64,000 nt of DNA from an uncultured bacterium (GTDB lineage: Bacteria; Zixibacteria; MSB-5A5; UBA10806). The stretch's first letter is position 1. Each line of letters opens with the position of its first letter. The DNA lies in contig CBEUCH010000014.1 in the NCBI GenBank assembly GCA_965541585.1, forward strand, positions 12,670 through 76,669. The letters run 5' to 3'. The notes under the pieces are model-generated. The model made no database searches, was not told the origin of the DNA, and saw only the letters and a list, made by a program, of their open reading frames with translations. This document shows positions 37,388-62,688 of the stretch, piece after piece. A program made the translations under genes and the position numbers.

Positions 37388-38506
37388 ATGAGGCTAATCG
37401 CTATGACGTTGTTATTGATATTTCTGTTAGCGCCACCAATTTGTATTATGGCGCAGTCGAATCTTAGCGCAGATTTAGTAATGTCCAGTCAAAAGGATAA
37501 TGGTCCACGGTCGGCCCTGACTTACTATGACTATCCTCTCTATCGGCTCGGGGATTGTAATGGGGATGGTTGGTGTAACTATGGTGATCTTGTGACTCTT
37601 ATCCGCGACTACCAGGGTTGGCCCCCGGAACCGTGCATGCCGGCAGGGGACATTAATGACGATGGAGAAATGAATATCTTGGATATTATCGATCTCATCT
37701 TCTGGCTGAGGCAGTACCAGGGGAATAACCCACCGGCCAATGAATGCCCATGGGAGGTTCCGGATGCTGAAACCGGCGGCGGCTTATGTATAGATAATTG
37801 CATTGGCGATCCGGGGGAGACCGTTTATATAGGCGTCTATGTTCAAACCTCCTTAATGAATTGCTTTCATTTTTCATTGGCTTACGACAATGAAAATGTT
37901 GAGAATATATTCTTTGGCGATGTAAATCCCATTTTCTATGATGTTTCCTGGTCAGACTGGGCAATCATAAGGGAGAATATGCCGCCTGGAAATGATGATA
38001 CTCTAAACACAGTAACTCTTGCCCTGTTCGGTGGTGACGAAGCCGGTAATATTTTTTCTCCGATTGAACTTCCCGAGTTGACGTGGGCATTTGACATCGG
38101 CGTGACAATTTCTCCCGGCTCTCAGGGAGGTTATCATCCCCTTCTTCTGGAGGCCGACCCTTATTTCGGACCGCCGATGTTTCACGCGGAATTCGGTTGG
38201 GATTGGTATGAATTTCCCGCAGTCACCGATAATTGCATATATATACCCGGCGATTGTGATCATAACGGAACAGCATTGGAACTGGTAGATGTGGTAGCCA
38301 TGGTCGGGATGTACAGGGGCACCATCGAAGCTGACTATACATGCGCCTGTGGAGTTCGGGGATGCAGTTTTTCTCCGCAGGCCGATCCAAATGGCAATTG
38401 TATATCTTTTGAACTTACTGACGTTGTTATCGAGATAGGTGCCTACAGGAATGATCCGCCTGGTACAGTTGCCCAGGGTTGTCCTGACTGTCCGGGGTCC
38501 CGCTGA
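37388..38506 (+). CDS. secreted protein with dockerin-type calcium-binding repeats
   Basis: Signal peptide. Repeats GDCNGDGWCNYGDLVTLI, GDINDDGEMNILDIIDLIFWL, GDCDHNGTALELVDVVAMV. Lower GC than its neighbours. Confidence 0.6.
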   Translation: MRLIAMTLLLIFLLAPPICIMAQSNLSADLVMSSQKDNGPRSALTYYDYPLYRLGDCNGDGWCNYGDLVTLIRDYQGWPPEPCMPAGDINDDGEMNILDIIDLIFWLRQYQGNNPPANECPWEVPDAETGGGLCIDNCIGDPGETVYIGVYVQTSLMNCFHFSLAYDNENVENIFFGDVNPIFYDVSWSDWAIIRENMPPGNDDTLNTVTLALFGGDEAGNIFSPIELPELTWAFDIGVTISPGSQGGYHPLLLEADPYFGPPMFHAEFGWDWYEFPAVTDNCIYIPGDCDHNGTALELVDVVAMVGMYRGTIEADYTCACGVRGCSFSPQADPNGNCISFELTDVVIEIGAYRNDPPGTVAQGCPDCPGSR

Positions 38507-40501: not shown

Positions 40502-40857
40502 GGGGGCGACAGGTTTCGACGGGATGACTGATGTCTGACCTGCGCGTCGAGGTCCCGGTAACCTCGTAAAACAATCGGGAAACCTTACAAGTGCCGACGA
40601 TTATTCGTACGCACTGGCTGCCTAAGACACTGGCGGCTCGTTCTACCTGGATTTGCTTATCGGTCCGGGATAGAGCGTCGATTAGATAAGATAGCGGCAT
40701 AAACCGTCCCCGATTATGTCGCGAAACAAAAGGGGGCTGGACGGGAGGAAAGCCCGGCGATCGGCGTTTCTCCTGTTGAGATTAAATATTCGCCTACGCG
40801 CGTAGACGGTTATTCGGAGGCATTTTCGGACGGGGGTTCGATTCCCCCCGCCTCCAT
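40502..40857 (+). ncRNA. ssrA: transfer-messenger RNA (tmRNA), one-piece
   Basis: 5' end gggggcgacaggtttcgacggg. Internal tag reading frame gcc gac gat tat tcg tac gca ctg gct gcc taa = ADDYSYALAA* at 40592..40624. 3' T-arm/acceptor ggacgggggttcgattccccccgcctcca. Confidence 0.85.
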
Positions 40858-40874
40858 TAATTTGTCTTGACAAT

Positions 40875-41135
40875 ATGATTTATCTTTATGTATTACAGGG
40901 CGAAAAGGGTAAGCGCTATGTTGGTATTACCAACAACTTAGAACGCCGTTTATCTGAACATCGTAGCGGAAAAACTAAGGGCGGACAAATCATAGGTAAG
41001 TTTAAACTACTGCACATTGAGAAATTTGAAGATTATAAAGAAGCTCGGAAACGCGAGGTATTCCTTAAATCAGGAGTTGGCCGTGAGTGGTTAAATCAAG
41101 AATTTCCTCGGACGGGGTCCGCCGAAGGCGGATAA
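40875..41135 (+). CDS. small GIY-YIG nuclease-family protein
   Basis: N-terminus MIYLYVLQGEKGKRYVGITNNLERRLSEH matches the GIY-YIG core. The last ~9 codons are read out of the tmRNA-3'-end repeat, so the native C-terminus is uncertain. Confidence 0.65.
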   Translation: MIYLYVLQGEKGKRYVGITNNLERRLSEHRSGKTKGGQIIGKFKLLHIEKFEDYKEARKREVFLKSGVGREWLNQEFPRTGSAEGG

Positions 41136-41179
41136 AGCTTGGTCGCCTCCGGCGACTTCGATTCCCCCCGCCTCCACCA
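41108..41179 (+). repeat. direct repeat B: copy of the ssrA 3' terminus (with encoded CCA) carrying a 39-nt insertion
   Basis: cggacgggg[tccgccgaaggcggataaagcttggtcgcctccggcgac]ttcgattccccccgcctccacca. Matches 40830..40857 apart from the bracketed insertion. Confidence 0.8.
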
Positions 41180-41518
41180 ATTGCAAGTGCCTATGTTACA
41201 ACAGGATATAGAAACAACTGGCAGAGCATTATTGCCGTGATCCCCCACCTATCATCCAATAACTTTTATGACTAAGAATAACCTAAGACCGTTTTGGGCA
41301 CGATTTGGCCGCACTCTATTTTGCCGATTATGAAACCTAATTAATACTATATTGGAAATAAAGATGCATTTTACGATTTCTTGTTGTATATATAAAAAGT
41401 AATTAGATATTAGAAATATGAAAAGTAAAAGACTTTACCACAGAATTGATGAGGTCTGGCAGGTGCGAGCGATGACGAGGAAGCAACTCGAGGAGAAGAA
41501 ATAGGGATACTTTAACTC

Positions 41519-42529
41519 ATGACTCCCAATGATAAGGCATCGCTCAGCGAAGAGGCTATAGAAAGGCAATATCCTGATATCTATAATTCTCTTATGCCGC
41601 TCCTTCGTAGGTCCCAGCCGGGTTCACTAGACGCGTACTTGGAAACGGTTGCCTGCGACGTGAATATTGAGCAAACTCAAACTAATGCTCATTGTAGATT
41701 CATTGCTTTGGATGGAAACAAGAGAGCACGGGTTAAGGATTTTGTACGATTCATTGGAAAAAAAATTACAGATTTTGCGATTCCGCGTGGTGAGATAAAC
41801 CGTGCTTTGAACGAAGGAGCAAAAACAAGTTCAACAGCCCCAGTAGATAAACTTAGTAAAAAAGCAAGGAACCTTTTTACTCGTTTGCCTAAAAGTGGTG
41901 AAGGAGGAGAGGTTCTGCTTTCAATCTTAGCCGAAACCATCCTTCGCCTGCCTCAGCTGTTTACAAAAATGGTTTTAAAAACCAATGCCAATATGCATGT
42001 TCACGGAAGTGATGCCATTCACTTCGGGATTAACCAATCGAATGGTAGTCTTGCACTGTATTGGGGAGAGTCAAAACTTTATGCAGATGCGGGCGCGGCT
42101 ATTAGAGAATGTTTTACTAGTCTTGCACCATTCCTGTTGGGCGCAGGTGGCAGCGGGGCGGCGCAGGAACGCGACCTGCAACTCATGCGTGATGGGATCG
42201 ATCTAGATGACATCAAACTTGAAAATGCGCTGAAACAATACCTCGATCCGGACAGCACCATGTTTAAACAGTTTGAATACCGGGGTCTATGCCTTGTTGG
42301 ATTTAACTCGGAGGCTTATCCAACATCACCAAACTCACCGGAGGCAAATCAATTAAAACAAAAGATCGAAACGACCTTTGACAATTGCAAAAACCAAATC
42401 CAGAATCGTGTATTAGCAGAGAGAATAGAAACTTTCACGATTGAATTATTCTGTGTTCCCTTCCCAAAGGTTGACGATTTCCGAAGTGCCTTCCGTGAAG
42501 AATTGGGGTTGCCGGATGGGCAAAGCTGA
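41519..42529 (+). CDS. candidate HamA-like protein (possible PD-(D/E)xK nuclease)
   Basis: 336 aa. Segment HVHGSDAIHFGINQSNGSLALYWGESKLY gives a D...E-x-K arrangement. Stop overlaps the downstream start (ATGGGCAAAGCTGA). Low GC. Confidence 0.45.
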   Translation: MTPNDKASLSEEAIERQYPDIYNSLMPLLRRSQPGSLDAYLETVACDVNIEQTQTNAHCRFIALDGNKRARVKDFVRFIGKKITDFAIPRGEINRALNEGAKTSSTAPVDKLSKKARNLFTRLPKSGEGGEVLLSILAETILRLPQLFTKMVLKTNANMHVHGSDAIHFGINQSNGSLALYWGESKLYADAGAAIRECFTSLAPFLLGAGGSGAAQERDLQLMRDGIDLDDIKLENALKQYLDPDSTMFKQFEYRGLCLVGFNSEAYPTSPNSPEANQLKQKIETTFDNCKNQIQNRVLAERIETFTIELFCVPFPKVDDFRSAFREELGLPDGQS

Positions 42530-45119
42530 TTTCCAAGACTGGCTTCTTCAAAATTCGGGTTTTCAAAATCAATATCATCTTTTGATCATCGACTCTGTTG
42601 CTAGCCAATTTCCCAACCTGAAACGAAATGATCATTATGACCAGACAAAGCATGACTGGAATTATTTGTTGTTATGTGCCAGTTTACTTGCGCAGTCGGA
42701 AACTGAGAAGTGTCAAAGTGCTGCCCTTCGAATCTCTCAGTATTGCTTGGAATGTGCAAGTACGTCAGAGGTAGAAAAAGATGCAGCAGCAGTTGTCTTA
42801 GATACTCTGGCGAACCGCCCAGCGATTAAATTAGCAGAAGAGCGAGAGCTTATCCAGCCGGGCTATTCGGATAGAATACCGTTCCCTCTTTTCCAGGAAT
42901 GGACCCGCCATTCTATTGAGAATTCAATCACGTTATCTAATGCCGAAACCATACGGGCGAACAAGTTTCAATGCAGGTTTTGGGAAAGCGTCAAACGCTA
43001 TGATCGGATCAGCATTTCAGCTCCTACATCTGCCGGCAAATCATTCATAATTGGACGTTGGTTGGCTGAATACCTGCGAAAGAATCAAAGGGCATCAATT
43101 ATTTATATTGTGCCAACACGCGCACTTATACAGCAAGTCCAGCGAGATATAAGGGACGTACTCAAATGTGAAGTTATCGAAAACGTAGAGGTTACCACTC
43201 TACCACTGAGAGCATCTTTTAAGGCTGACAGGGCAAACATATTTGTTTTCACCCAAGAACGGTTTCATATCCTCCTTGCAGCGTTCAACAATAATGTGCC
43301 AGTAGATCTGTTGATAATTGATGAAGCTCAGAAGATAGGAGATAATTATCGGGGCGTATTATTGCAACAGGCCATTGAAGCCATCTCTCAAAGAAGACCA
43401 GCAGCTAATTTCCTCTTTTCCAGCCCAATGACGGATAATCCAAAAGTGTTGCTTGAAGATGCCCCTGATGGAGTTTCTCAAGACGCCATCGTAAGTGAAG
43501 ATACTACAGTCAACCAGAATCTTATTTGGGCGTCGCAGGTCCCAAGGAAACCTTGTACTTGGAGTGTTGATTTGATTCTACAAGAAGACGCTGTCGAAAT
43601 AGGTAAAATAGAACTTTCGACAAGTCCGACACATACAAGTAAACGTTTGCCGTTCGTTGCGTTCTCTTTAGGCAACTCAAAAGGGGGAAACATTATTTAC
43701 GTCAACGGCGCTGCCGATGCGGAGAAGACCGCCAAGCAACTCTATGATTTGATCGGAAATGATTCGAACACACCGGGAGATACGGAATTATGCGATCTCA
43801 TCGAACTAATTCGCAAGACTATTCATCGACACTATTCACTTGGAAACGTCATCAGTCGAGGGGTTGCTTTTCACTATGGTAATATGCCGCTCCTTGTCCG
43901 GACAGAAATTGAAAGATTGTTCCGTGCCAACAAGATTAAATACCTGGTATGTACATCAACACTGATTGAAGGCATGAATATGCCGTGCCAAAGCATATTC
44001 GTCCGAGGGCCAACGAAAGGGAAAGGAAATCCTATGACATCAAGTGATTTCTGGAATCTTGCCGGACGCGCCGGACGATGGGGCAAAGAATTTCAGGGTA
44101 ATATTGTTTGTGTCGATCCTCGGAAAGACAATGTATGGAAGAATGGTGCCCCAAAGGGGCGAACGAGGTTCAGGATAAATAGAACAGCGGATGACGTCCT
44201 TTTAAATCAGGAGGAGAAGCTACTCAAATTTATTGATACTGGCACACCACGAAATGAAGCACGTAAGGACCCAAATTTGGAGTATGTATTTTCCTTCCTT
44301 GTCTCATCATACATACGCAACAACGGTATTGTAACTGCACCCTGGGCAAAACGTTATCCTGAAGAGTTTGTTAATAAGCTGGAAGCAAAAATCAAAAGTA
44401 TAATTGAGAGTATTGCTATACCAGAAGAAGTCATCCTGCGGAATCCGGGCATTAGCCCAATCGCAATGAATGATCTTCTTGGATATTTCCATGAGCGGAC
44501 AGCTAATCGTAATGAACCTGTTGAAACGCTGATTCCCGTTCGGGCAGAGAGTGATGATGCATTCGATGAATATGCAAAGATTCTTAACCGAATCAACAAG
44601 TGTCTAGGATACGAGTTTGGCAGTGGAAAACGAGTGCGGCAACTTGCTTTATTGATCGTTGACTGGATGAAAGGCTATCCATTGGCACGGATTATATCTA
44701 GCCGTGAAAGCTATTATGGCTCCAGCGATTTGCCAGCATTGATAAGGAATACCATGAATGATGTGGAAGAATATGCACGTTTTCATGCGCCAAAGTATCT
44801 TGCATGCTATGTGGATATTCTAAAGGTGCATTTAGCCAAAAATGAGCGCCATGATCTTATTGAAAGCTTGCTGGAGCTTAATGTTCTCCTTGAGTTTGGC
44901 GTTTCACATAAGACTCAGCTTTCACTTATGGGATTAGGGCTGAGTCGGACGAGCGTTATTACAATATCAGAGTTCATCGCTGAAGACTCACTAAATGAAT
45001 CTGAATGTTTGCAGTGGTTAAAAGAAAATGATTGGATGACACAAGATATGCCTGAAATCATCAAACGAGAAGTAGGAAATCTACTAACGAGCCGCCAAGA
45101 GGTAGGCACAGAGGAATAG
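42441..45119 (+). CDS. SF2 helicase (DEAQ-box). Candidate HamB-like partner. Probable true start at 42516 (MGKADF)
   Basis: Walker A ISAPTSAGKSF, motif II LLIIDEAQKIGD, further helicase-like blocks (VPTRALIQQV, FHYGNMPLLVRTEIE, CTSTLIEGMNMP), and a long C-terminal domain. Confidence 0.6.
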   Translation: MNYSVFPSQRLTISEVPSVKNWGCRMGKADFQDWLLQNSGFQNQYHLLIIDSVASQFPNLKRNDHYDQTKHDWNYLLLCASLLAQSETEKCQSAALRISQYCLECASTSEVEKDAAAVVLDTLANRPAIKLAEERELIQPGYSDRIPFPLFQEWTRHSIENSITLSNAETIRANKFQCRFWESVKRYDRISISAPTSAGKSFIIGRWLAEYLRKNQRASIIYIVPTRALIQQVQRDIRDVLKCEVIENVEVTTLPLRASFKADRANIFVFTQERFHILLAAFNNNVPVDLLIIDEAQKIGDNYRGVLLQQAIEAISQRRPAANFLFSSPMTDNPKVLLEDAPDGVSQDAIVSEDTTVNQNLIWASQVPRKPCTWSVDLILQEDAVEIGKIELSTSPTHTSKRLPFVAFSLGNSKGGNIIYVNGAADAEKTAKQLYDLIGNDSNTPGDTELCDLIELIRKTIHRHYSLGNVISRGVAFHYGNMPLLVRTEIERLFRANKIKYLVCTSTLIEGMNMPCQSIFVRGPTKGKGNPMTSSDFWNLAGRAGRWGKEFQGNIVCVDPRKDNVWKNGAPKGRTRFRINRTADDVLLNQEEKLLKFIDTGTPRNEARKDPNLEYVFSFLVSSYIRNNGIVTAPWAKRYPEEFVNKLEAKIKSIIESIAIPEEVILRNPGISPIAMNDLLGYFHERTANRNEPVETLIPVRAESDDAFDEYAKILNRINKCLGYEFGSGKRVRQLALLIVDWMKGYPLARIISSRESYYGSSDLPALIRNTMNDVEEYARFHAPKYLACYVDILKVHLAKNERHDLIESLLELNVLLEFGVSHKTQLSLMGLGLSRTSVITISEFIAEDSLNESECLQWLKENDWMTQDMPEIIKREVGNLLTSRQEVGTEE

Positions 45120-45161
45120 TTGAAAGGCAAAGTGTAAGAGCTCGGTGTGCTTTGGTTATTT

Positions 45162-45258
45162 GCGCGTAGACTGTTATTCGGAGGCATTTTCGGACGGGGT
45201 CCGCCGAAGGCGGATAAAGCTTGGTCGCCTCCGGCGACTTCGATTCCCCCCGCCTCCA
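45162..45258 (+). repeat. direct repeat C: longer copy of the ssrA 3' region with the same 39-nt insertion
   Basis: cgcgtagactgttattcggaggcattttcggacgggg[39-nt insertion identical to repeat B]ttcgattccccccgcctcca. The 5' 37 nt match 40801..40837. Confidence 0.8.
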
Positions 45259-47162: not shown

Positions 47163-47200
47163 ATAGGGATAATGGGGTTCGATTCCCCACGTTCCCATAT
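47163..47200 (+). repeat. orphan tRNA 3'-half fragment (T-arm plus acceptor), possible att-site remnant
   Basis: ..atggggttcgattccccacgttccca has no matching 5' half upstream. Differs from both tRNA-Lys genes. Confidence 0.45.
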
Positions 47201-47433
47201 GATGCAATTGTTTATTTATAGGCGGATTCCAGTTAAGCATGGCCTCAACAATAATCGGTAGTTACGAACCAGGAATTGCAGCAAATCCCTACGCATCATA
47301 GGCCACAAACAACATTCTTGACAAAATTATCAATATTTATTATTTTTACCAAAACAGGCGTCACAGTATTGTGCCTGCCTTGTCTTCGAAGTCGATTAAT
47401 GCAACTGCTCAAAACCCCAAACAAGGAGAGATC

Positions 47434-50400
47434 ATGTTTTCTAGTGGAAAGTCTGTGTCCGGCTTAATTGGGGCACTGCTGTTTTCAGCAACCATGTCGA
47501 CGATAGGCGCTCAAGCCGAAAACGATGTCGCAGGCGACGTAAAATCATCTGGTTTGATTACTTCGGTACCACGGACTATGTCTTATCAGGGGTATCTAAA
47601 AGACGCGGGGGGGCTACCCGTATCAGACACTCTCGAAATCACTTTCCGTATCTATGATGTCGAATCAGGGGGAAGCGCCCTATGGACGGAAACGGTTGCC
47701 GCCGTATCAATCATTGACGGTAACTTCACCGCCATCGTCGGAGAAACCACTCCGATAAACTTGAGCTTCGATGTCGACTACTGGATGTCGTTGCAGGTGG
47801 AGGGCGATCCCCTGGAGATGGACCCGAGACTGAAACTTCATATGTCGGCTTACGCGGCACGAAGCGACACGACCGATTATGCCCTCAACTCCGATTTGCT
47901 GGATGGTCTCGACTCGGGCGATTTTGCCGGTTCCGCTCATGACCATGACGCGGATTATGTCAACGAGGGGCAGGCAAATTCCGTTACAGGCGCTATGGTA
48001 GTTGATGGCACGGTACAGTTTGGCGACATTGGCCAGAACGGCGCCTCCGCAGGCCAGATTATGAAATGGAATGGTTCGGCCTGGATTGCGGATAATGATG
48101 AGACTGGACCAGGGGGTGGCAGTGGCTGGGTCGATGATGGTAATTATATCAGGTTAGAGACGGGCACTGATTCTGTCGGAATAGGCACGGCCACGCCATC
48201 GGAAAAGCTGGAGGTTGCAGGGAGTATTCTGGTAACCGATAAAGCCACCATCGGTCCAAGCAACTCAAATACCGGTGCGAACGCGTTTGTGGCAGGTTTA
48301 GCCAATACGGTAAGCGGAGATTGGACTACAATCGGCGGTGGTCGGATAAACACGGCAAGCGGCCATGATGCGGTGATCGGAGGCGGTCGAGGCAACACTG
48401 CCAGCAGCTCATATTATGCCACGGTCGGCGGCGGCAACGAAAACACCGCCGGCGCTGGTGGCGCTACTATAAGTGGCGGAAGATTTAATCTGTGCAACGC
48501 GGATTACGCAACTGTCGGCGGAGGTTATGCCGATACTGCCAGCGGGGCCTCTTCCACAATCGGCGGAGGTTGGAGTAATATCGCTAGTGGAGTAGAAGCT
48601 ACAGTCAGCGGAGGTCAGATGAATATCGCCGCCGGCCAACAGGCATCGATCGGCGGTGGAAGTCAAAACTCCGCAAGCGGTTTCAGAGCTACGGTCGGTG
48701 GAGGTGTGGGAAATTTTGCTACCGGAGACAATGCAACGATCGCTGGCGGCTTCGGTAACCACGCAACCGCGAATGGTGCGACAGTAGGGGGCGGCAGTAC
48801 GAACACCGCCAGCGGTACCGCCGCCACTGTTCCGGGCGGGAATATGAATGAAGCTGCCGGTATTTACTCTTTTGCCGCCGGCCGTCGAGCTAAAGCTAAT
48901 CACATTGGAGCATTTGTGTGGGCAGATCAGACCAACTCGGATTTTGCCTCCACCGGTGTCGATCAATTCCTCATTCGTGCGTCAGGGGGTGTTGGAATCG
49001 GTACGACGAGTCCAGCATCGGAATTGGATGTTGCCGGCACCATCCAGGCTACCGGATTTATGATGACCACCGGTGCCTCCGACGGATATATTCTCACCTC
49101 CGATGCCTCGGGATCAGGATCTTGGCAATCTCCGGCCCCCAGCGGCGGCTGGATAGATGATGGAAATGCTGTCAGGCTGGAGACAGTTAACGATTCGGTT
49201 GGTATTGGAACTGCTACGCCGTCGGAAAAATTGGATGTTTCAGGTAATATCCTGGTGAGCGGAACGGCGACTATCGGAACGGGACATACCAACACAGGCA
49301 CGAGCGCTTTCTTAGCGGGGGAGAACAATACGGCCAGTGGAAATTACACCGCTGTTGGTGGAGGTCTGAATAACACCTCAAGTGCGAATTACGCGACAGT
49401 CAGCGGCGGCTGGAATAACAACGCCGGAGAGATAAACGCAACAGTCGGTGGCGGTTGGGACAATGCTGCCAATGGGCAATACTCAGTTGTCGCCGGAGGA
49501 AGGGAGAACACCGCCGGTATAGATTTCGCCTCGGTTGGTGGCGGAGCTTATAACTTCGCGGGCATCAGCAGCTACGCTACTGTCGCCGGGGGGTATGCCG
49601 ACACCGCCAGCGGAGGCTACGCCACAGTTAGCGGCGGTCAAAGTAACATCGCCAGCGAGCAAAATGCGGCCGTGGGTGGCGGTAGTAACAATTCTGCCAG
49701 CGGTACGTATGCGACCGTTGCCGGCGGTCGAGACAATATCAGTTCAGGGCAAAATGCGACGATTGGCGGCGGTACTACTAACACGGCCAACGGCGGTAGT
49801 GCTACAGTTGCCGGTGGTGGAAATAATATTTCCAGCGGTTCGTCCAGCACAATCGGTGGAGGAGACAGTAATACCTCCGGTGCCAGTTCCAGTACTGTAG
49901 GCGGCGGAAAGAGAAACAATGCCAGCGGATATGTCAGCACAATCGGTGGTGGTCAGGATAACATAGCCAGTAACCAATATGCTACTGTGCCGGGTGGATA
50001 TTTAAATGAGGCGACAGGTATTTATTCCTTCGCGGCCGGGCGTCGGGCTAAAGCCAATCATGATGGGGCTTTCGTATGGGGCGACCGGACCAACGCGGAT
50101 ATAACTTCCTCCGCTGCAGATGAATTCAAAATACGCGCCTCCGGCGGAACCTATCTATACTCTAACTCCAGTCTCACCGCAGGTGTAACGCTGGCGGCCG
50201 GAGCTTCATCCTGGAGTTCCGTTTCCGACAGCACGCTAAAGCGTAATATCAGACAGGTAAACGGTGAAGAAATTCTCGAAAAACTGGCACAGTTACCCAT
50301 CAGCCAGTGGAGCTATAAAGCTCAGGATGAAAGCATTGAACATATCGGCCCGATGGCACAGGATTTCTATGAGATCTTCGGGCTCGGCGCCGACAACAAA

Positions 50401-50508
50401 ACGATCTCTACGATAGATCCGTCGGGGATAGCTCTAGCCGGTATACAAGCGTTATTGGATGAAATCGAACTATTGAAAGCCCGTATCGCCGAGCTTGAAG
50501 GTAAGTAA
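47434..50508 (+). CDS. large exported repeat protein: tandemly duplicated ~320 aa fibre-like module with Gly-rich short repeats, plus C-terminal S74 intramolecular-chaperone (endosialidase/tail-fibre type) domain
   Basis: Strong SD aaggagag before ATG 47434. Signal peptide. Repeated ..ATVGGG.xN.ASG.. units. Two copies of GW(V/I)DDGN..RLET..DSVGIGTATPSEKL(E/D)V... . C-terminus SDSTLKRNI...IELLKARIAELEGK. Confidence 0.65.
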   Translation: MFSSGKSVSGLIGALLFSATMSTIGAQAENDVAGDVKSSGLITSVPRTMSYQGYLKDAGGLPVSDTLEITFRIYDVESGGSALWTETVAAVSIIDGNFTAIVGETTPINLSFDVDYWMSLQVEGDPLEMDPRLKLHMSAYAARSDTTDYALNSDLLDGLDSGDFAGSAHDHDADYVNEGQANSVTGAMVVDGTVQFGDIGQNGASAGQIMKWNGSAWIADNDETGPGGGSGWVDDGNYIRLETGTDSVGIGTATPSEKLEVAGSILVTDKATIGPSNSNTGANAFVAGLANTVSGDWTTIGGGRINTASGHDAVIGGGRGNTASSSYYATVGGGNENTAGAGGATISGGRFNLCNADYATVGGGYADTASGASSTIGGGWSNIASGVEATVSGGQMNIAAGQQASIGGGSQNSASGFRATVGGGVGNFATGDNATIAGGFGNHATANGATVGGGSTNTASGTAATVPGGNMNEAAGIYSFAAGRRAKANHIGAFVWADQTNSDFASTGVDQFLIRASGGVGIGTTSPASELDVAGTIQATGFMMTTGASDGYILTSDASGSGSWQSPAPSGGWIDDGNAVRLETVNDSVGIGTATPSEKLDVSGNILVSGTATIGTGHTNTGTSAFLAGENNTASGNYTAVGGGLNNTSSANYATVSGGWNNNAGEINATVGGGWDNAANGQYSVVAGGRENTAGIDFASVGGGAYNFAGISSYATVAGGYADTASGGYATVSGGQSNIASEQNAAVGGGSNNSASGTYATVAGGRDNISSGQNATIGGGTTNTANGGSATVAGGGNNISSGSSSTIGGGDSNTSGASSSTVGGGKRNNASGYVSTIGGGQDNIASNQYATVPGGYLNEATGIYSFAAGRRAKANHDGAFVWGDRTNADITSSAADEFKIRASGGTYLYSNSSLTAGVTLAAGASSWSSVSDSTLKRNIRQVNGEEILEKLAQLPISQWSYKAQDESIEHIGPMAQDFYEIFGLGADNKTISTIDPSGIALAGIQALLDEIELLKARIAELEGK

Positions 50509-50766
50509 TACGAGATAGACTATTAAAGATATGAATAGGGAATAAAGAACTCCCAACTCTTGCATTATTGTGAGGGTGTCCACCGGAACAAGTTCAGCGA
50601 CCCGAATCGGTCGGAAAGCTTTTAAACCTAACAGTTGAAAAAGCGGGCAATATCCGTTAAATTTATTGATATTGTAATTGGATTAGAGGAACGTTTTGAG
50701 TGTAAATTCGATCGTGTAGAATTAGCGGCTATTAATGGAAAAGCCGAAAGCCCGAAAGGACCCGGA

Positions 50767-51669
50767 ATGAAAAGAGTTAAGATTTTGATTGTCGCCATAA
50801 TTGCGTCAAACGTTCTGTTTCACGCATGTGGCGGAGGAAAGAAGTCATCCCCGGATCTGAGCTGTTCGGATTTTTTACCGGAGGAAATTGCTCAAGCCGG
50901 AATCGAACGATCGTCGGAGATAAGAACTTTTGAGGGCGAATCACTTTTTGAATATATCAATGGCGGAGCCGAAATCTACCATTCGTATAACTTCGTTGAG
51001 GTCGCCGCGGCAAATTATACATCCAACGGTATGGAGATGGCGGCGGATATCTATCGCTTTGAGAATTCGGATAATGCGTATGGATTATTCGCCTCGTTTC
51101 GGCCGGATAATCCGGCGTTCGTCGTGCTCGGCGCTGAAGGATTCAGTTCTCCAACGAGTATCGATTTCGTCAAAGGGCCGTTTGTTGTCAGGGTAATTGG
51201 ATTTGAAGAGTCAGCCGAGATCGAACAGGCAATAAATGTGCTGGCATCGGAAATTAACGGCATCTTACCGGCAGACGATCGTCTTCCTCAAAAGTTCTCT
51301 CTTTTTCCGGGGGGGGATATTATCGACGCCACCGATAGAATCTACGCCGAATCGTTTCTCGGTCATGGTTTCCTGGCTGACGTATACACCCGAAAATATA
51401 GACTGGACGGCGATACGCTTACCTTATTTATGACTGAAGATGGATCGGGAGAGAAATTCAGTATGTGGTTTGAGTCCGGCGCTGTCGACGGTTCGGCGGA
51501 GCCTGCCGCCGAATATCTTTTATTCGATGACGGAAGAGCCTTTGTAATTGAAAATAACTACTATGGAATGATCGTAGCCGGCCTGAAAGGCGGGGACTTG
51601 CTGGGGGGAATAAATTACAGCGATGATAAGAAAGATTTCCTGACGGCCTGGCTTGATTCGTTCTATTGA
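50767..51669 (+). CDS. hypothetical exported protein
   Basis: ORF 50635..51669 with likely start MKRVKILIV and signal peptide. No motif recognised. Confidence 0.45.
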   Translation: MKRVKILIVAIIASNVLFHACGGGKKSSPDLSCSDFLPEEIAQAGIERSSEIRTFEGESLFEYINGGAEIYHSYNFVEVAAANYTSNGMEMAADIYRFENSDNAYGLFASFRPDNPAFVVLGAEGFSSPTSIDFVKGPFVVRVIGFEESAEIEQAINVLASEINGILPADDRLPQKFSLFPGGDIIDATDRIYAESFLGHGFLADVYTRKYRLDGDTLTLFMTEDGSGEKFSMWFESGAVDGSAEPAAEYLLFDDGRAFVIENNYYGMIVAGLKGGDLLGGINYSDDKKDFLTAWLDSFY

Positions 51670-54818: not shown

Positions 54819-56147
54819 TTACTTTCGCTCACCGGCTAACCACTCTTCCACTGCCGTGCGCTCCCTGGGAATTTGTGCGGAGAGAATCTTATGTCCTTTT
54901 CGGGTTACCAGGATATCATCCTCAATGCGGACTCCGATTTCGAGATCGGGCAAATAGATTCCCGGTTCGACAGTTATGACCATCCCCGGCGCCAGCGGCA
55001 CCCAGGGATCGGAGAGATCGTGTACTGCCAATCCTAAATGATGCGATGTTGAATGGATGAAATCATCGGCATAACCCGCCTGACGGATGATATCCCTCGC
55101 GATCTCATCAATTTCGCGCAAGGTAATCCCGGGTTTGATGGCGTCTATGGCTGCATTTTGTGCACTGAGCACAATGTCGTAGATTTTTGCCTGTTCGGCG
55201 GAGAACGTGCCATCTACCGGCAGGGTACGACTGATATCGGAGGCGTAATGATCCCACTCAGCGCCGACATCCAGCAAAAGCAATTGGCCGGCAGTTAATG
55301 CCTGGTTGCGTTTCTCGTAGTGGAGTATGGTTGTTTCCTCTCCCGCGCCGACGATTGGCGAAAAAGCCATGTGCTGCGCACCGCGCCTCTTGAACGATTC
55401 CTCGAGTATACCGTCAAGCTGGAATTCTTTAACGCCGGGCTTTATCGATGCCAGAAGTTCCGTTAATCCTTCATAAGTTACTTGAATCGCCGTTTCTATC
55501 GCTGCAATCTCCTCGCCTGTTTTTATCATTCTCATCGATTCAAGAAAGCGCGAGGAATTCTCGATTTTGACTCCGGGAATACGTTCCTTGACCTTTTCGT
55601 AATATTCCAGATCCGGCGGAACGTCCACCGAGGGTTTTACTATCTTTGAAATAAGGTGCAGCGTTGGATTTTGCTTCATCTGCGACACGATCAGGCCGTC
55701 AAGGGAGCGTATTCTATAGATGCGATCGAATCCCCATGCGACCTTCAGTGATTCGGATAGCGCGGGACGTATCCCGGTCCAGCGTTCAGCCTCGATATCC
55801 CGGGGAGGCAGAAGCAAAACCTGTCTATCGACTGCTTCCGGGCACAAAACCAGGATAGCATCCGGCTCGTCAAGGCCGGTCAGATACCAGAAATTACCGT
55901 CGGAACGATAACCGGTATCGCCACTGTAACCCTGCGAATAGAGTACCGCGGTCCCAGCGCCGATGGAATCAAGCAAAGCTAACCTACGTTTCTTAAACTC
56001 CTCCATGCCGATTTGCCGCCGATCAGAATTGTCCGGATTCTGCGCACTTATACCCACAACTCCCAGGATATAAGACGATATGAAGATCAATACCGATATT
56101 ATACAAAAGAGGCGCCTGCTATCACGTTTATGGAGCTTGTTTTTCAT
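54819..56147 (-). CDS. Xaa-Pro aminopeptidase (M24B)
   Basis: N-terminal creatinase-like domain and pita-bread core with HxxGLxVHD and metal-ligand residues. Confidence 0.8.
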   Translation of the reverse strand: MKNKLHKRDSRRLFCIISVLIFISSYILGVVGISAQNPDNSDRRQIGMEEFKKRRLALLDSIGAGTAVLYSQGYSGDTGYRSDGNFWYLTGLDEPDAILVLCPEAVDRQVLLLPPRDIEAERWTGIRPALSESLKVAWGFDRIYRIRSLDGLIVSQMKQNPTLHLISKIVKPSVDVPPDLEYYEKVKERIPGVKIENSSRFLESMRMIKTGEEIAAIETAIQVTYEGLTELLASIKPGVKEFQLDGILEESFKRRGAQHMAFSPIVGAGEETTILHYEKRNQALTAGQLLLLDVGAEWDHYASDISRTLPVDGTFSAEQAKIYDIVLSAQNAAIDAIKPGITLREIDEIARDIIRQAGYADDFIHSTSHHLGLAVHDLSDPWVPLAPGMVITVEPGIYLPDLEIGVRIEDDILVTRKGHKILSAQIPRERTAVEEWLAGERK

Positions 56148-57648: not shown

Positions 57649-59544
57649 CTATATTTCGCCGGACAATTGCTTTGCTAAGAAACTTTCCATCGCACGGTAG
57701 AAATCGAATTTATTTTCCTCGTTAACAAACCCATGCCCTTCGTTTTCTTTGACAATGTATTCGACTTCTATTCCGCGTTCCCTCAGGGCATTCACAATCT
57801 GGTCGGATTCTTCTTTATTCACTCTTGGATCATTGGCACCTTGAGCTACAAGAAGCGGTACTTTTATCTTGTCGATATGGAAAACCGGGGATACGGCTGC
57901 CAGAAGCGCACTGTCTTTCTCGGGATGGCCAACCATTTCATATATCATCTCTCTATAGGGCTCCCAGTATGGTGGAATGGCGTTCATCCAGGTAAAAATG
58001 TTGGAGACACCGACATAATCCACACCGCAGGTATAAAGATCCGGAGTAAAAGCAAGTCCGGCAAGAGTCGCATATCCGCCATAACTACCGCCATAAATAG
58101 CTATTCTCTCAGGATCGGCAATCTCCTGATCAATAAGCCAATTAACGCCGTCGGTTATATCGTCCTGCATCTTCTTGCCCCACTCCTTAAAAGAAGATTG
58201 CCAGAATTTCTTCCCGTAGCCAATCGATCCCCTGAAATTCATTTGAAAAACAGCATAGCCGCGATTGGCCAGAAACTGTATTTCCGGGCTGAAACGCCAG
58301 CTATCCCGGGCCCAGGGGCCACCGTGCGGGTTCACGACAACCGGAAGATTATTCGCTTTCTGCCCTTTCGGCATTGTCAAATAACCATGGATTGTCAATC
58401 CATCCCTTGATTTGTAAACAATCGGCTTCATTTCTGCCAGCTGGTCTTCGTCGAGCCAGGGATTTCTCTCCGCCAATTTTGTTATTTTGCCGGTCTCTTT
58501 TTCATAAAGATGATATGAGCCCAACGTGCGATCACTCAGAATTCGAACGATGAATACATCCTCGTCCCGATTGTTAAACGTGAGATGCACTTCGTAACCG
58601 GGGAATTTCTTATCTAATGTCTTATATAATTTTTTTGTTTCTTTGTCCAGCAATTCTCTTTCATACTTCCAGGTGACATATCCGATTTCTGTGAGCACTT
58701 TTCGTTTCCTGGAATAACTCATTCCACTCACATCCACATCAGGATGCTCATAGACCAATTCCAGTTCATTGTTGTTGGCCAGGTCATATTTTACTATGGC
58801 CTGTTTATCCCGTTCAAGATCGGATAGTGCGTAGATATATTTATTATCAAATGTAAAGAATAATGGCTGAAAGGTATCCTTAAAAGAGGTAGTCATTACC
58901 TTCTTAAAGGCCTCTTGTTCATTATTCCGATAGAGAATAGTATTATTTACGCCATCGGTCTCAGCGGCAATCCTGATACGGTAATCATGATCTGTTATCC
59001 ACTGAGTTACTTTACCGGGATTCTCAGCCGCCAATGTAAGTTCCCCGGTCACAGTATTAAGCCGATAGGCATCAAATACCTCTCGGTTCCTCCTGTTCAT
59101 CTGGATCAATATATCCGTATCGCTGTCTTTCATCTCGTCTATGATACTTACCTTGACACCCTCGAAAGGCGTCAGGTCCGCTTCATTTTCTCCGTTTCTG
59201 TCCACGCCAAAGACATGATAATTCTCGTCGCCTCCAAAATCGCGGATATAGAGAAGGCGATCATTACCTTTCCAGTAATACCACCAGATATCTCGATCGG
59301 TAACGGAAGTGATACGTTTCGCTTCCTGAGAGCCGACTTCCCGGACAAAAATGTTCATGCGTCTTTCGTAAGGCTGGGTGAACGAAATGTATTTGCCATC
59401 CGGCGAAATCTGAAAGTAGGCCTGCTGAGGATTTTTGAAGAAATCCTCCATAGGAATAAGAGCTGGCTGTTCAGTTGTGCACATAAGGGAGATCGAAAGC
59501 ATCATTACTAAAACAACAAGTCCCAGGAAAATCCTATTTCTCAT
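57649..59544 (-). CDS. S9-family serine peptidase (prolyl oligopeptidase / dipeptidyl-peptidase type) with N-terminal beta-propeller
   Basis: Catalytic GGSYGGY motif, signal peptide. 631 aa. Confidence 0.8.
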   Translation of the reverse strand: MRNRIFLGLVVLVMMLSISLMCTTEQPALIPMEDFFKNPQQAYFQISPDGKYISFTQPYERRMNIFVREVGSQEAKRITSVTDRDIWWYYWKGNDRLLYIRDFGGDENYHVFGVDRNGENEADLTPFEGVKVSIIDEMKDSDTDILIQMNRRNREVFDAYRLNTVTGELTLAAENPGKVTQWITDHDYRIRIAAETDGVNNTILYRNNEQEAFKKVMTTSFKDTFQPLFFTFDNKYIYALSDLERDKQAIVKYDLANNNELELVYEHPDVDVSGMSYSRKRKVLTEIGYVTWKYERELLDKETKKLYKTLDKKFPGYEVHLTFNNRDEDVFIVRILSDRTLGSYHLYEKETGKITKLAERNPWLDEDQLAEMKPIVYKSRDGLTIHGYLTMPKGQKANNLPVVVNPHGGPWARDSWRFSPEIQFLANRGYAVFQMNFRGSIGYGKKFWQSSFKEWGKKMQDDITDGVNWLIDQEIADPERIAIYGGSYGGYATLAGLAFTPDLYTCGVDYVGVSNIFTWMNAIPPYWEPYREMIYEMVGHPEKDSALLAAVSPVFHIDKIKVPLLVAQGANDPRVNKEESDQIVNALRERGIEVEYIVKENEGHGFVNEENKFDFYRAMESFLAKQLSGEI

Positions 59545-59691
59545 GATTCTATTCCTCCGGTTGATAAGTTGAGATTTCTTTTCTAAAAAGGGCGACCTTA
59601 TTATTCAATGCTTGCAGGAAAGCTACTAACCGCAGTTTGCGGAAATGAACAGGGAAACGATTGTCAGCCATTTTTCGAAATTTACCAGTCC

Positions 59692-62688
59692 TTATTTCAG
59701 CAATAGCATTTTATTCGCTTCTGAGAAATCACCGGCCTGAATCCTATAGAAATACAGACCGGAGCTACTTCGTCTAGAGTCCCAGGTAATCTGGTGATAG
59801 CCGGCTTGTTTTTCACCATCGACCAGAGTTTCCACCCGGCGACCAAGAAGATCGTATATCTCTATCGTAACATGCGATTGTTCCGGAAGCGCATATTCTA
59901 TATTGACGCGGTTATTGAATGGATTGGGATAACTTCCGAGAAGGGCAAATTCGTCCGGGATACTAGCATCGCTTTCCTGATCAGGGATGGAGGTAGCATC
60001 ACAGTTCAATTCGAGAACCTCAAAAGCGTCGATACCGGCCTCGACAACGGATCCCTCTTCAAGATCAGAAACCTCGAAGCGAACCTTGATCATTCCGGTG
60101 GAGGTCATGGAATCCGCTATGTCAATTGAATATTCCTCCCAGCCATTAGTGCTTGCGGGCCCGACAGTTTCGGCGAGGATCCAACTTGATCCATCGTCGC
60201 TGGAGATGTATGTCTTGAAGAAATCGCGGTTTGGATTTTCACCGAAATTATTGGTATACCACAAAGCGTAATTGATCTTCGGAGTTTCGGCGCCGTACAG
60301 ATAGATTAAAGGCGACGTCAGGTAAGTATAGCCGCCGTCAACATCGGAGTCGCCCTGCACGTTGCCTGTAACGTAACATTGGCCCGAACCATCGTAATCT
60401 CTCGCCGGATCCCCGCGTTCACCGCCGCCGACAGGAAACCCTCGCTCCCAATGACCCGCGATGGCATCTCCACTGACTGTCCAACCTTGGTCGGTTTCAA
60501 AATCGTCCTCCATAACCTCGATAAGATTTCCAACCGATGAAACATGATAGGAGTCCGGTGCATCAGGCGGGTCCGAAACCGACGAACCTTCATCTCCGGA
60601 CGCGCTAATATAGAATTCCGGCAGGGCCTCGCAATCAGCGGGCGGTAAAGTTGCTTCAAACAGGTCATTTCCAATCGATATCAACTCCAGTGTCGAAAAA
60701 TCGCCGCCCTCGTAGCGATAACTGAGAGTCCCGGATCCCGGCAGGTAATTCTCGCTGCCATTCTCAATTCTCACGATAAACGTATTCGGAACGCCGGGTT
60801 GGATATATTCCGGTAATCCATCGGGGAACAGGATGACCAACGCCTGAGGCACAGGAGGAGCCATCCCCAGATCGGGATTACCCCAGTACGCTCCCCATTC
60901 AAACGTCTCGTACTTTACGTAATACCACAATCCGTAAGTGTACATTATACGCAAAGCCCTCTGATGAGCTTCACCCTGAGAATATTCGCCGGATGTGACT
61001 GAAGTTGTGAAGAAATAGTCCAGCGATTGGCTGGAACCATCCAAGGGATCATCCCAACCCGGACGTCCGAGAGCGACCTGTGTTGCCCCTAAAAAGCCCA
61101 CGGCCCCTCGATACATCATGGCCTGACCGATATTCAAATGATCGGTATCAGAGTTGCTGCAAGCATCCGCAAAAATAATGGCGGGATAATCGTCATTCAA
61201 CTGAGGGCAGTCGCTGGACGAGATAAAAGCTTCTTGCGTAGAATGCCATATATGGCTTGAGGTCGGCGATCCATGGCCCGCCCAGTTTACAAAGGCATAT
61301 GTGCCTGACGACCAGACTGAAATTACATTACTATGCCTTAAGTCATAGTCCATGGGATATGAGGAATACCCCCGCTCATACATTCTGGTCATAGTCCAAT
61401 CGGACATCCACGGCTGATCCACTTTCGCTTCCATGAGAACGGCGCAATCAGTACGCGGGTTGGGGTCATCATCCCAGAAAAAACCGCCAAGAAGGAGTAT
61501 ATTTTTCTTAAAGGCCGGATCATCATTTATTTCATAGGCAACCGACTTTTCGCAGATATCAAAAACGATATTGGGATCACTCCAGGGGATTCTGCCAACG
61601 GTAACTTCCGTATAAAAATCGTTGTAATCCGTTTCCTCACCATAAAGATGGTCTCCATCTACGTCCCAGGACTGATCGTCGGGCAAACTGAGTTCGGCAT
61701 AATAATAATCGGTTTCGGGTTGGCCGTAGCCAAGATCCAGCCCCGTGCGGCGCATGGGGACATCGTCATAATGGCCTACCAGTAACACGTCTTCAACGCC
61801 CCATTCGCTCGATGGGTATTTTTCTCTAAGGAAATTTCTTATCTTCTCTGGCAGATCGTAACCAGCATAATTGGTATTGATCCAGGACGTGGTCACGACC
61901 TCGACACTTCTTCCCTTTTGAGTTTCCCAATCCACAAGGGGCGTTATTGACGATGTAAGCGAACTGAGCGTGATCATCACGAAATCATGAAAATCCTCAT
62001 CCGTGCGCATATCCCGGGGATACCAGTTCACTGCCTGATCATAATTGATTATAATCTCTTCAGCAATTCGCTCAGGTCTCTCCAGGTGGTCAACGACAAC
62101 GCCGCTTGAGCGCTCGGAGGTTTCATATTCCACGTTGACTGAAATATCCGGAAAATAAACTAACTCGCCTGAGATGGGACGGTATGCGAACGGGGTTACC
62201 CTGACATCCACCAGATTGTATTTTCTGTAACCTGCCGTACGAACAAATTCCACAACATTCTGAGGATAGACGTCGTTGTTTGCATAAACTGAATTATAAT
62301 TATCTTCGTAGAGTCGTCTTTCCTTTTCGTAAATTATCGGATCCTCCTGACCGATAACTCTCGGCAGAGGGGCAGGCGGAATTCTGTAGCTTCCGGGGAG
62401 CCTTACTCCAGCACCCGTGTCGAAACTGATCCCGGCAAACTCTGTTCCCGGAGGAATCGCAACAGCAAAGATCCTCGAAGGAAGAACCGGTTTGCCCGGC
62501 ACCAGAAGATGACCGAAATCTCCAACGGAAATCTCCTGACCCTGATGAGTATCATTGATTTCGTAGCCCTCTATCGGTATGCTAACCGCAATACTTTCCT
62601 GATCATCCGATGCTAAGATATGGCTTGCTGCCAACAGACTAAGGCAAAGTACGATTGACATCGCGGGGAGTATCAGCGGACGTTTCAT
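59692..62688 (-). CDS. C25 (gingipain-like) cysteine peptidase family protein with T9SS C-terminal sorting domain
   Basis: 998 aa, signal peptide. C-terminus ..GLYFYRIQAGDFSEANKMLLLK typical of Por/T9SS CTDs. Confidence 0.6.
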   Translation of the reverse strand: MKRPLILPAMSIVLCLSLLAASHILASDDQESIAVSIPIEGYEINDTHQGQEISVGDFGHLLVPGKPVLPSRIFAVAIPPGTEFAGISFDTGAGVRLPGSYRIPPAPLPRVIGQEDPIIYEKERRLYEDNYNSVYANNDVYPQNVVEFVRTAGYRKYNLVDVRVTPFAYRPISGELVYFPDISVNVEYETSERSSGVVVDHLERPERIAEEIIINYDQAVNWYPRDMRTDEDFHDFVMITLSSLTSSITPLVDWETQKGRSVEVVTTSWINTNYAGYDLPEKIRNFLREKYPSSEWGVEDVLLVGHYDDVPMRRTGLDLGYGQPETDYYYAELSLPDDQSWDVDGDHLYGEETDYNDFYTEVTVGRIPWSDPNIVFDICEKSVAYEINDDPAFKKNILLLGGFFWDDDPNPRTDCAVLMEAKVDQPWMSDWTMTRMYERGYSSYPMDYDLRHSNVISVWSSGTYAFVNWAGHGSPTSSHIWHSTQEAFISSSDCPQLNDDYPAIIFADACSNSDTDHLNIGQAMMYRGAVGFLGATQVALGRPGWDDPLDGSSQSLDYFFTTSVTSGEYSQGEAHQRALRIMYTYGLWYYVKYETFEWGAYWGNPDLGMAPPVPQALVILFPDGLPEYIQPGVPNTFIVRIENGSENYLPGSGTLSYRYEGGDFSTLELISIGNDLFEATLPPADCEALPEFYISASGDEGSSVSDPPDAPDSYHVSSVGNLIEVMEDDFETDQGWTVSGDAIAGHWERGFPVGGGERGDPARDYDGSGQCYVTGNVQGDSDVDGGYTYLTSPLIYLYGAETPKINYALWYTNNFGENPNRDFFKTYISSDDGSSWILAETVGPASTNGWEEYSIDIADSMTSTGMIKVRFEVSDLEEGSVVEAGIDAFEVLELNCDATSIPDQESDASIPDEFALLGSYPNPFNNRVNIEYALPEQSHVTIEIYDLLGRRVETLVDGEKQAGYHQITWDSRRSSSGLYFYRIQAGDFSEANKMLLLK

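Follow-up and report, generated by a model that had tools for sequence, protein, structure and literature searches.

What kind of protein combines the repeats of a bacterial adhesin with the self-cleaving folding domain of a phage tail fibre? The question is raised by a gene in a 64,000-nucleotide (nt) stretch of DNA from an uncultured bacterium of the Zixibacteria lineage (GenBank assembly GCA_965541585.1, contig CBEUCH010000014.1, positions 12,670 to 76,669; hereafter the window, with positions counted from its first nucleotide). A sequence-only reading of this DNA had described an exported giant repeat protein in a non-phage setting that ends in a Peptidase_S74 (S74) intramolecular chaperone, and had offered three roles for it: a surface fibre or adhesin, a tailocin-type fibre, or an S-layer-like component. 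The description is supported by the analysis presented here, and the first of the three roles fits best. We consider it likely that the gene encodes a chromosomal fibre exported by the Sec pathway, most likely displayed at the surface as a homotrimer, and that this fibre belongs with the "mosaic adhesive trimer" (MAT) fibres of Bdellovibrio bacteriovorus. Adhesin-type repeats and a phage-type self-cleaving folding domain meet in this protein, which is part of a very large, little-studied family; it is not a new kind of system. We approached the question through the domain composition and homologies of the protein, the conservation of its catalytic motif, its cellular context and the exchange of a tip and chaperone cassette relative to a close relative. 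From these we infer trimer formation, self-cleavage, surface display, an outer-membrane route and adhesion.

Domain architecture of the fibre

The mechanically called open reading frame (ORF) opens with GTG and runs from 47371 to 50508 on the plus strand, a frame of 1045 aa. The earlier description of a 1045-aa exported protein was right about a long exported ORF but not about its start, which is likely the ATG at 47434, giving a gene of 1024 aa at 47434-50508. We prefer this start because a Shine-Dalgarno sequence, AAGGAGA, lies at 47423-47429, four bases 5' of the ATG, and because the homologue P0001 (97% identical) was likewise called at 1024 aa. Residue numbers count from this ATG, except that the Pfam match to the S74 domain is numbered on the 1045-aa frame. 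The span of 47371-51669 that had been treated as one feature covers two genes, the fibre gene and a separate DUF6599 gene (50767-51669).

The C-terminus carries the S74 intramolecular chaperone (Pfam PF13884; aa 931-1024, 50224-50508, plus strand, stop codon at 50506-50508). A profile search bore out the domain proposed by the sequence-only reading, with 48.4 bits against a cut-off of 22 (E 1.1e-12, residues 952-1003 of the 1045-aa frame). The catalytic SDxxxK motif, S931-D-S-T-L-K936, stands at the domain boundary, and among 25 homologues S931 never varies and K936 is retained in at least 90%. By its position relative to S931, the stretch of 25 residues that ends the mature fibre (aa 906-930, 50149-50223, plus strand) would form its distal tip, with exposure predicted after self-cleavage. 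In the structural model the C-terminal region consists of strands and a long terminal helix, with a predicted local distance difference test score (pLDDT) of 53-77. One homologue, P0153, has a Cys in place of the nucleophilic Ser (..AKCDSTLKQNI..) in an otherwise well-conserved S74 domain, and may represent a thiol variant of the self-cleaving dyad.

At the other end of the protein, inspection by eye revealed a Sec-type signal peptide (aa 1-28, 47434-47517, plus strand) composed of a basic, Lys-containing n-region, a 15-residue hydrophobic core, LIGALLFSATMSTIG, and a predicted cleavage site, AQA|EN. It is followed by a beta-sandwich (aa 44-145, 47563-47868, plus strand) that AlphaFold2, given this domain alone, models with a pLDDT of 88.6 and a predicted template modelling score of 0.79, and that bears the motif YQGxL...F.IY...GG..LW.E...G.F...LG...PR. 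We refer to it as the N-domain and presume that it serves as a cell-proximal retention domain. In most of the 150 best relatives it begins at about residue 22-30, right behind the leader. A Pfam scan of the N-domain gave no match, a PDB fold search gave none at E<=1e-3, and comparison with the PDB and viral models returned generic Ig-like matches only. Its profile, in a full HMMER search, matched 80,107 cluster representatives (of clusters at 50% identity) at E<=1e-3 and 47,338 at E<=1e-10; a word-indexed database search, which yielded 4 matches, was too insensitive, and the full search was used instead. So abundant a domain without a Pfam model could reasonably be proposed as a new curated protein family, and it offers a way into the question of how such fibres are anchored. 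Some proteins (P0125-P0138) have the N-domain in 2-4 copies. The linker that connects it to the shaft (aa 146-230, 47869-48123, plus strand) is modelled with low confidence (pLDDT 36-47) and contains the motif ..HDHDADYVNEGQANSVTGAMVVDG.., which is also present in the family members P0141 and P0234.

Between linker and tip lies a shaft whose many short Gly-rich units, noticed from the sequence alone, have a periodicity of 15 aa (45 nt), with repeat families whose 9-12 copies are spaced by multiples of 45 nt. Counted by protein register, the first of two modules has 12 units and the second 15, or ~27-31 in all with the degenerate units at the edges. Module 1 (aa 231-570, 48124-49143, plus strand) opens with an N-cap that contains the capping-loop motif VGIGTATPSEKL at aa 251 (VGIGTxxPxxxL type), continues with its 12 units of type GGGxxNxAxG (xGGGxxNxAxGxxAT) over aa 300-480, and closes with a C-cap and connector that include a second capping-loop motif at aa 523; the closing segment reads GIYSFAAGRRAKANH..FVW.D...F.IRASGG. 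Module 2 (aa 571-905, 49144-50148, plus strand) is a diverged duplicate built to the same plan, with a capping-loop motif at aa 592 and 15 units over aa 640-866. All three loops were found with the motif published for MATs, [G/N]-pi-x-x-P-x-x-x-L.

The module had been thought to recur almost verbatim about 1017 bp further on, and the repeat had been flagged as a likely site of assembly collapse or expansion. The duplication is real, with copies of ~335 aa that start at 48124 and 49144, but the two modules share only 49% protein identity across 361 columns. At the DNA level ~63% of the aligned positions are identical by our estimate from the alignment (the 75% mean column identity given by the alignment tool counts columns occupied by a single sequence). 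Besides short gaps at the ends, this alignment is broken by five indel blocks (four of 42-45 nt, one of 3 nt), and repeat scans found no long exact repeat between the modules. Because the modules are not near-identical, the worry about assembly collapse is unfounded, and the duplication is old. GC content peaks at 0.56 at 48-50 kb. A foreign origin of this stretch was considered and rejected: the shaft is 21% Gly and 14.5% Ala, both specified by GC-rich codons, and the high G+C of the fibre region follows from this composition.

Structural relatives of the repeats came from sequence searches. The head of UspA1 matches aa 331-490 with E 1.6e-21 (3PR7) and aa 817-889 with E 1.9e-6 (3NTN), and the repeats of the shaft are homologous to the head of this Moraxella trimeric autotransporter adhesin. 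A Foldseek search with the full model places the heads of UspA1 and BpaC among its best matches, at ranks 1, 2 and 13. The connector between the modules matches fibre crystal structures of Bdellovibrio: 8OND (Bd2133) with E 2.2e-8, 8OJN with 2e-4, 8OL4 with 4.4e-3 and 8OML with 0.039. 8OJN, 8OL4 and 8OML bear no deposited name beyond "cell wall surface anchor family protein"; judging from their adjacent entry codes, we take them to be MAT fibres of the same study as 8OND. Scans of the fibre with NCBIfam and PADLOC returned no families.

In the mechanism that we propose, the signal peptide would carry the chain over the inner membrane by the Sec route. The S74 domains of three chains would associate and nucleate folding of the shaft from the C-terminus, and the Ser931/Lys936 dyad would cut before Ser931, freeing the 94-aa chaperone. 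The mature fibre left by cleavage, ~900 aa long and kinetically stable, would expose its new C-terminus as the distal tip. In its shaft, MAT-type connectors would join two tandem UspA1-like beta-roll "head" modules, and the N-terminal beta-sandwich, lying next to the cell, would hold the fibre on the envelope. The fibre could then bind a surface, a polymer or another cell.

Several points weigh against a MAT-like surface fibre. The S74 profile reached no solved S74 structure by sequence, with MYRF at only E 0.69. The full-length model is moderate (mean pLDDT 62), its Foldseek E-values are weak (best 0.019) and its top 50 Foldseek matches include no S74 structure. The N-domain (~100 aa, aa 44-145) is likened to that of the Bdellovibrio MATs by description only. 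No outer-membrane translocation or anchoring partner was identified, and the neighbouring DUF6599 gene is not conserved across the family. Finally, trimerisation and cleavage are deduced from homology.

Exchange of tip and chaperone relative to L001

A second line of evidence came from comparison with the close relative L001, a Zixibacteria contig on which the fibre gene is also present. In 150-nt windows the two genes are 93-100% identical up to a tract near the 3' end, and 97-100% identical for most of 47.5-49.9 kb; the flanks of the gene are ~95% identical. From ~50180 to the stop codon identity is 72-79%, and in the next window after the stop it is ~91%. Delimited by these windows and by synonymous (dS) and non-synonymous (dN) divergence, the recombination tract comprises codons 916-1024 (109 codons; 50179-50508, plus strand). 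Codons 1-915 have a dS of 0.034 and a dN of 0.006, as compared to 2.1 and 0.136 for codons 916-1024. At the protein level, aa 906-930 are 84% identical to L001 and the upstream part 98.7%.

These values indicate that, relative to L001, an old and divergent allele, itself under purifying selection, has replaced the last 15 residues of the mature fibre together with the whole chaperone. Exchange of this cassette agrees with the "tip swapping" known from MATs and from phage fibres. With its sharp boundaries in a gene that is otherwise ~99% identical between the two strains, the exchange provides a clean natural example of a tip swap outside phages.

Genomic surroundings and rival explanations

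The genes in 25.6-62.7 kb are cellular, and all named homologues of the sigma-54 protein encoded here come from Zixibacteria, which places the window in this phylum. They include sigma-54, HPr kinase, MlaD, GH57, two tRNA-Lys and transfer-messenger RNA (tmRNA) genes, followed by a GIY-YIG ORF, the Hachiman genes HamAB, a zinc alcohol dehydrogenase (ADH), the fibre and DUF6599, and then by an aldo-keto reductase, a DLH/TPR protein, an M24 peptidase, a pyridoxal-phosphate enzyme, an S9 peptidase and a C25 peptidase with the tail of type IX secretion system (T9SS) substrates. Pfam and PHROGs scans of these neighbours found no capsid, terminase, tail or baseplate gene, confirming the earlier view that the locus is not a prophage. 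The protein could still serve a prophage, tailocin or contractile injection system whose genes lie elsewhere, as a tail fibre or receptor-binding protein that is assembled onto the particle in the cytoplasm. In favour of this, S74 domains are familiar above all from the tail fibres and spikes of phages, aa 703-1023 match PHROG 1980 ("tail fiber protein") with E 1.6e-10, and NCBI names the homologues "tail fiber domain-containing protein". However, the protein has a Sec-type signal peptide, whereas fibres of such particles assemble in the cytoplasm. Three other Zixibacteria contigs (L001, L083 and L084) also lack phage structural genes around their homologues, the neighbours that recur in 80 loci are T9SS-tailed proteins, histidine kinases and fibre paralogues, and among 50,697 phage records a single phage, Itty13 (two records), matches the fibre, and only in its S74 part. 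A phage or tailocin origin is therefore largely refuted; we regard it as very improbable, and the tailocin-type fibre among the roles first offered is unlikely on the same grounds of signal peptide and missing tail genes. Another explanation, a trimeric autotransporter adhesin of the type Vc secretion class such as UspA1 or YadA, would suit the strong sequence homology between the repeats and the UspA1 head (E 1.6e-21), the presence of UspA1 and BpaC heads among the Foldseek matches and a Hep_Hag Pfam match in the homologue P0054. By Pfam, however, the C-terminal YadA-type anchor is absent, with the S74 chaperone in its place, and there is no coiled-coil stalk. The polarity also appears to be reversed, with a conserved, presumed anchor at the N-terminus and a C-terminus that would be cleaved off. 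Because YadA_anchor is absent, membership of type Vc fails and the head fold alone is common to the two; a true type Vc adhesin is extremely unlikely.

Two further explanations accept export but place the function elsewhere than in adhesion. One is a secreted structural or protective protein, for instance an ice-binding (antifreeze) beta-roll or a component of a sheath or of an S-layer-like coat. The shaft has flat beta-roll faces with much Thr, Ser, Asn and Gly, as is typical of ice binders, the ice-recrystallisation-inhibition protein 3ULT in the PDB matches with E 6.6e-5, and the Pfam family LbR_Ice_bind (PF21300) matches with E 9.4e-5. The Pfam score of 22.9 bits, however, is below the gathering score of 30, and the weak similarity reflects a generic periodicity common to beta-rolls. 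No SLH or other S-layer domain was found, which also counts against the S-layer-like component proposed earlier, and the S74 domain, the MAT-type architecture and the exchange of the tip cassette point to a functional distal end. We consider this explanation improbable. The other is a secreted polysaccharide depolymerase, an enzyme resembling an endosialidase or a tailspike. S74 chaperones sit at the ends of endosialidases and K5 lyases, and beta-helical shafts frequently bear glycanase sites; against this, searches with Pfam, NCBIfam and PHROGs revealed no catalytic domain, and the shaft is built of UspA1-type repeats, a known adhesin scaffold, making an enzyme quite improbable. For annotation, the locus should not be counted as a prophage or tailocin, and its internal repeat is no assembly hazard.

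The sequence-only reading had also suggested that the fibre may belong to an accessory region linked to ssrA, the tmRNA gene, on account of an orphan tRNA 3' fragment just upstream and the ssrA island 2 kb away. This fragment (TTCGATTCCCCACGTTCCCA; 47163-47200, plus strand, outside the fibre gene) reads GGGGTTCGATTCCCC-ACGTTCCCA and does resemble a T-arm and acceptor end, with 63% identity to the tmRNA 3' end, but ARAGORN made no call there and the Rfam match, to the tmRNA clan, is sub-threshold (15 bits, E 0.77), so that the resemblance is suggestive only. The tmRNA 3' end is repeated at 41157-41176 and 45239-45258, with a weaker tRNA-like end at 47178-47200. Colinearity of L001 with the window starts at 47216, just to the right of the fragment, and spans the fibre, DUF6599 and the downstream genes at ~95% identity. 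The cargo between the tmRNA gene and 47216 differs, with HamAB and ADH in the window and other small genes in L001, and the fragment marks the right edge of a variable region linked to ssrA. The fibre gene therefore abuts the variable region yet lies outside it.

Within this region, two islets lie in tandem behind the tmRNA gene (40502-40856), and a copy of the tmRNA 3' end closes each of them. Positions 41108-41176 and 45190-45258 form an exact 69-nt repeat, in which a 39-nt insertion of two hairpins (TCCGCCGAAGGCGGA and GTCGCCTCCGGCGAC) lies inside the T-arm region. An 86-aa GIY-YIG ORF (40875-41135), with its 3' end inside the repeat, occupies the first islet; the second holds a complete Hachiman system (41519-45119; PADLOC, HamA E 1.8e-115, HamB E 0). 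No integrase gene is present in the two islets (40502-45258). L001 has the same GIY-YIG islet and a different second islet, in which a 166-aa gene takes the place of Hachiman.

A promoter-like site upstream of the fibre gene (TTGACA, 17-nt spacer, TATTTT; 47318-47346, plus strand) matches the consensus at 10 of 12 positions in a consensus scan; it is suggestive only, and the number of such sites in the region is not above that expected from shuffled sequence. Downstream, the DUF6599 gene (50767-51669, plus strand, start likely; Pfam PF20244, E 5.2e-35) has a lipoprotein-like leader, MKRVKILIVAIIASNVLFHAC, and its product is a probable lipoprotein. DUF6599 adjoins the fibre only in L001 and L002; by tblastn it was found at none of 80 other S74 loci, nor in L083 or L084. 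A role as functional partner or anchor was rejected, as the adjacency is limited to these near-identical relatives. The C25 peptidase (59692-62688) carries Por_Secre_tail, and because of this the organism appears to have T9SS cargo; the Pfam scan found no such sorting domain on the C-terminus of the fibre.

Other features of the surroundings were noted in passing. A 1265-aa ORF at 25620-29417, in the lowest-GC stretch of the window (0.43-0.46), has no Pfam or NCBIfam match and may encode another large surface or secreted protein. Two segments are missing from L001: 54740-56267, which holds the whole M24 aminopeptidase gene (54819-56147), and 58244-59688, which covers most of the S9 peptidase gene, whose product has 631 aa in the window and 173 aa in L001. 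A 372-aa ORF at 37388-38506 has a borderline Dockerin_1 match exactly at the cut-off (22.9 bits), and a dockerin-like protein is also found near the fibre homologue in L083.

A widespread family and its known counterparts

The full fibre protein has >4,900 homologues at E<=1e-5, the named ones ("tail fiber domain-containing protein") coming from Zixibacteria, Planctomycetota, Kiritimatiellia and Anaerolineae. Its S74 subtype, gathered with the S74 alignment, occupies at least 583 loci in species-representative genomes of Bacteroidota, Ignavibacteria, Chlorobi, Acidobacteriota, Verrucomicrobiota, Chloroflexota, Alphaproteobacteria, candidate phyla radiation lineages and others. Members are frequently in tandem (121 members in 76 loci). 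Behind this one N-domain, shafts and ends vary widely. Among its 146 best representatives, UspA1-like heads occur in 27 and the present S74 subtype in 10, and other ends behind the N-domain are collagen-like, pectate-lyase-like or unassigned; one homologue, P0054 (above), has the Hep_Hag match. Clustering of 915 neighbouring ORFs from 81 loci returned fibre paralogues, T9SS-tailed proteins (29 loci), histidine kinases (14) and a few others as recurrent neighbours. A conserved neighbour partner was rejected, no family being universal among the 81 loci, and the homologues in the Zixibacteria contigs L083 and L084 lie in unrelated cellular neighbourhoods. At six loci, several of them in metagenome-assembled genomes of Alphaproteobacteria, a small ORF of ~180-200 aa lies directly downstream of the fibre gene (for example L010, 10878-11414; L011, 4026-4532; L013, 13344-13898; L015, 2221-2832). 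Two copies were scanned (L010 and L015) without a Pfam match, and the ORF could be a lineage-specific accessory gene.

The locus thus joins phage-type self-cleaving ends to autotransporter-type head repeats in what is an ordinary chromosomal gene of uncultured environmental bacteria, an architecture that has been characterised experimentally only in Bdellovibrio. A bolder proposal, which we put forward tentatively and hold to be doubtful, is that the N-domain is the handle of an undescribed, phylum-spanning fibre-display system with swappable shafts and tips, in which shuffling of tip and S74 from strain to strain changes binding specificity. If true, UspA1-like rolls, S74 cassettes, collagen-like and other ends would be exported and retained via an uncharacterised outer-membrane route. 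The hosts would include non-predatory bacteria such as Zixibacteria, with cassettes shuffled as in phages.

Among known systems, the nearest counterparts are the MAT fibres of B. bacteriovorus. These are described as chromosomal, cell-surface exposed proteins of ~1000 aa with a signal peptide and a conserved beta-rich N-domain of ~130 aa, reported without a PDB homologue, and with a C-terminus that is either an S74 domain with SDxxxK or a different adhesive tip (Caulton et al. 2024, PMC10769870). The same source documents 21 MATs per genome, the capping-loop motif [G/N]-pi-x-x-P-x-x-x-L and self-cleavage of the S74-type MAT Bd3182 (PMC10769870). The portions of its supplements that were searched held no match for other taxa, N-domain details or UspA1. 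The Zixibacteria fibre is likewise chromosomal and non-phage, with a signal peptide, a beta-rich N-domain, ~1000 aa and an S74 domain with SDxxxK. The likeness extends to the shaft connector, which is homologous in sequence to Bd2133 (8OND) and to 8OJN, 8OL4 and 8OML, to the three occurrences of the capping-loop motif, and to mosaic evolution by tip swap, seen between the fibre and L001 and in the joining of the N-domain to many shafts and tips. The fibre differs in its host, an uncultured bacterium not known as predatory, and in its number, with one copy in the 64-kb window as compared to 21 per Bdellovibrio genome. It also differs in its shaft, most of which is two modules of UspA1-type 15-residue beta-rolls, a feature not met in the available portions of the MAT paper.

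The fibre resembles the heads of UspA1 and YadA-like adhesins (3PR7, 3NTN; BpaC 7O23) in its 15-residue GGG repeats, with significant sequence homology (E 1.6e-21) and with UspA1 as the best fold match, but it has neither the C-terminal beta-barrel anchor nor the coiled-coil stalk of these proteins. Presumably, unlike in UspA1 and YadA, trimerisation is driven by the S74 chaperone and anchoring is N-terminal. As compared to phage S74 proteins, such as the endosialidase of K1F (3GW6) and the L-shaped tail fibre pb1 of T5 (4UW8), the Zixibacteria protein has a Sec signal peptide and lacks a virion context and an enzymatic domain, and by sequence it resembles no solved S74 domain significantly (MYRF E 0.69). 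Nevertheless, the phage proteins, the eukaryotic MYRF and the Zixibacteria fibre are alike in plan: each carries a C-terminal chaperone with a Ser-Lys dyad behind a beta-rich shaft that is trimeric in the known systems and would be so here.

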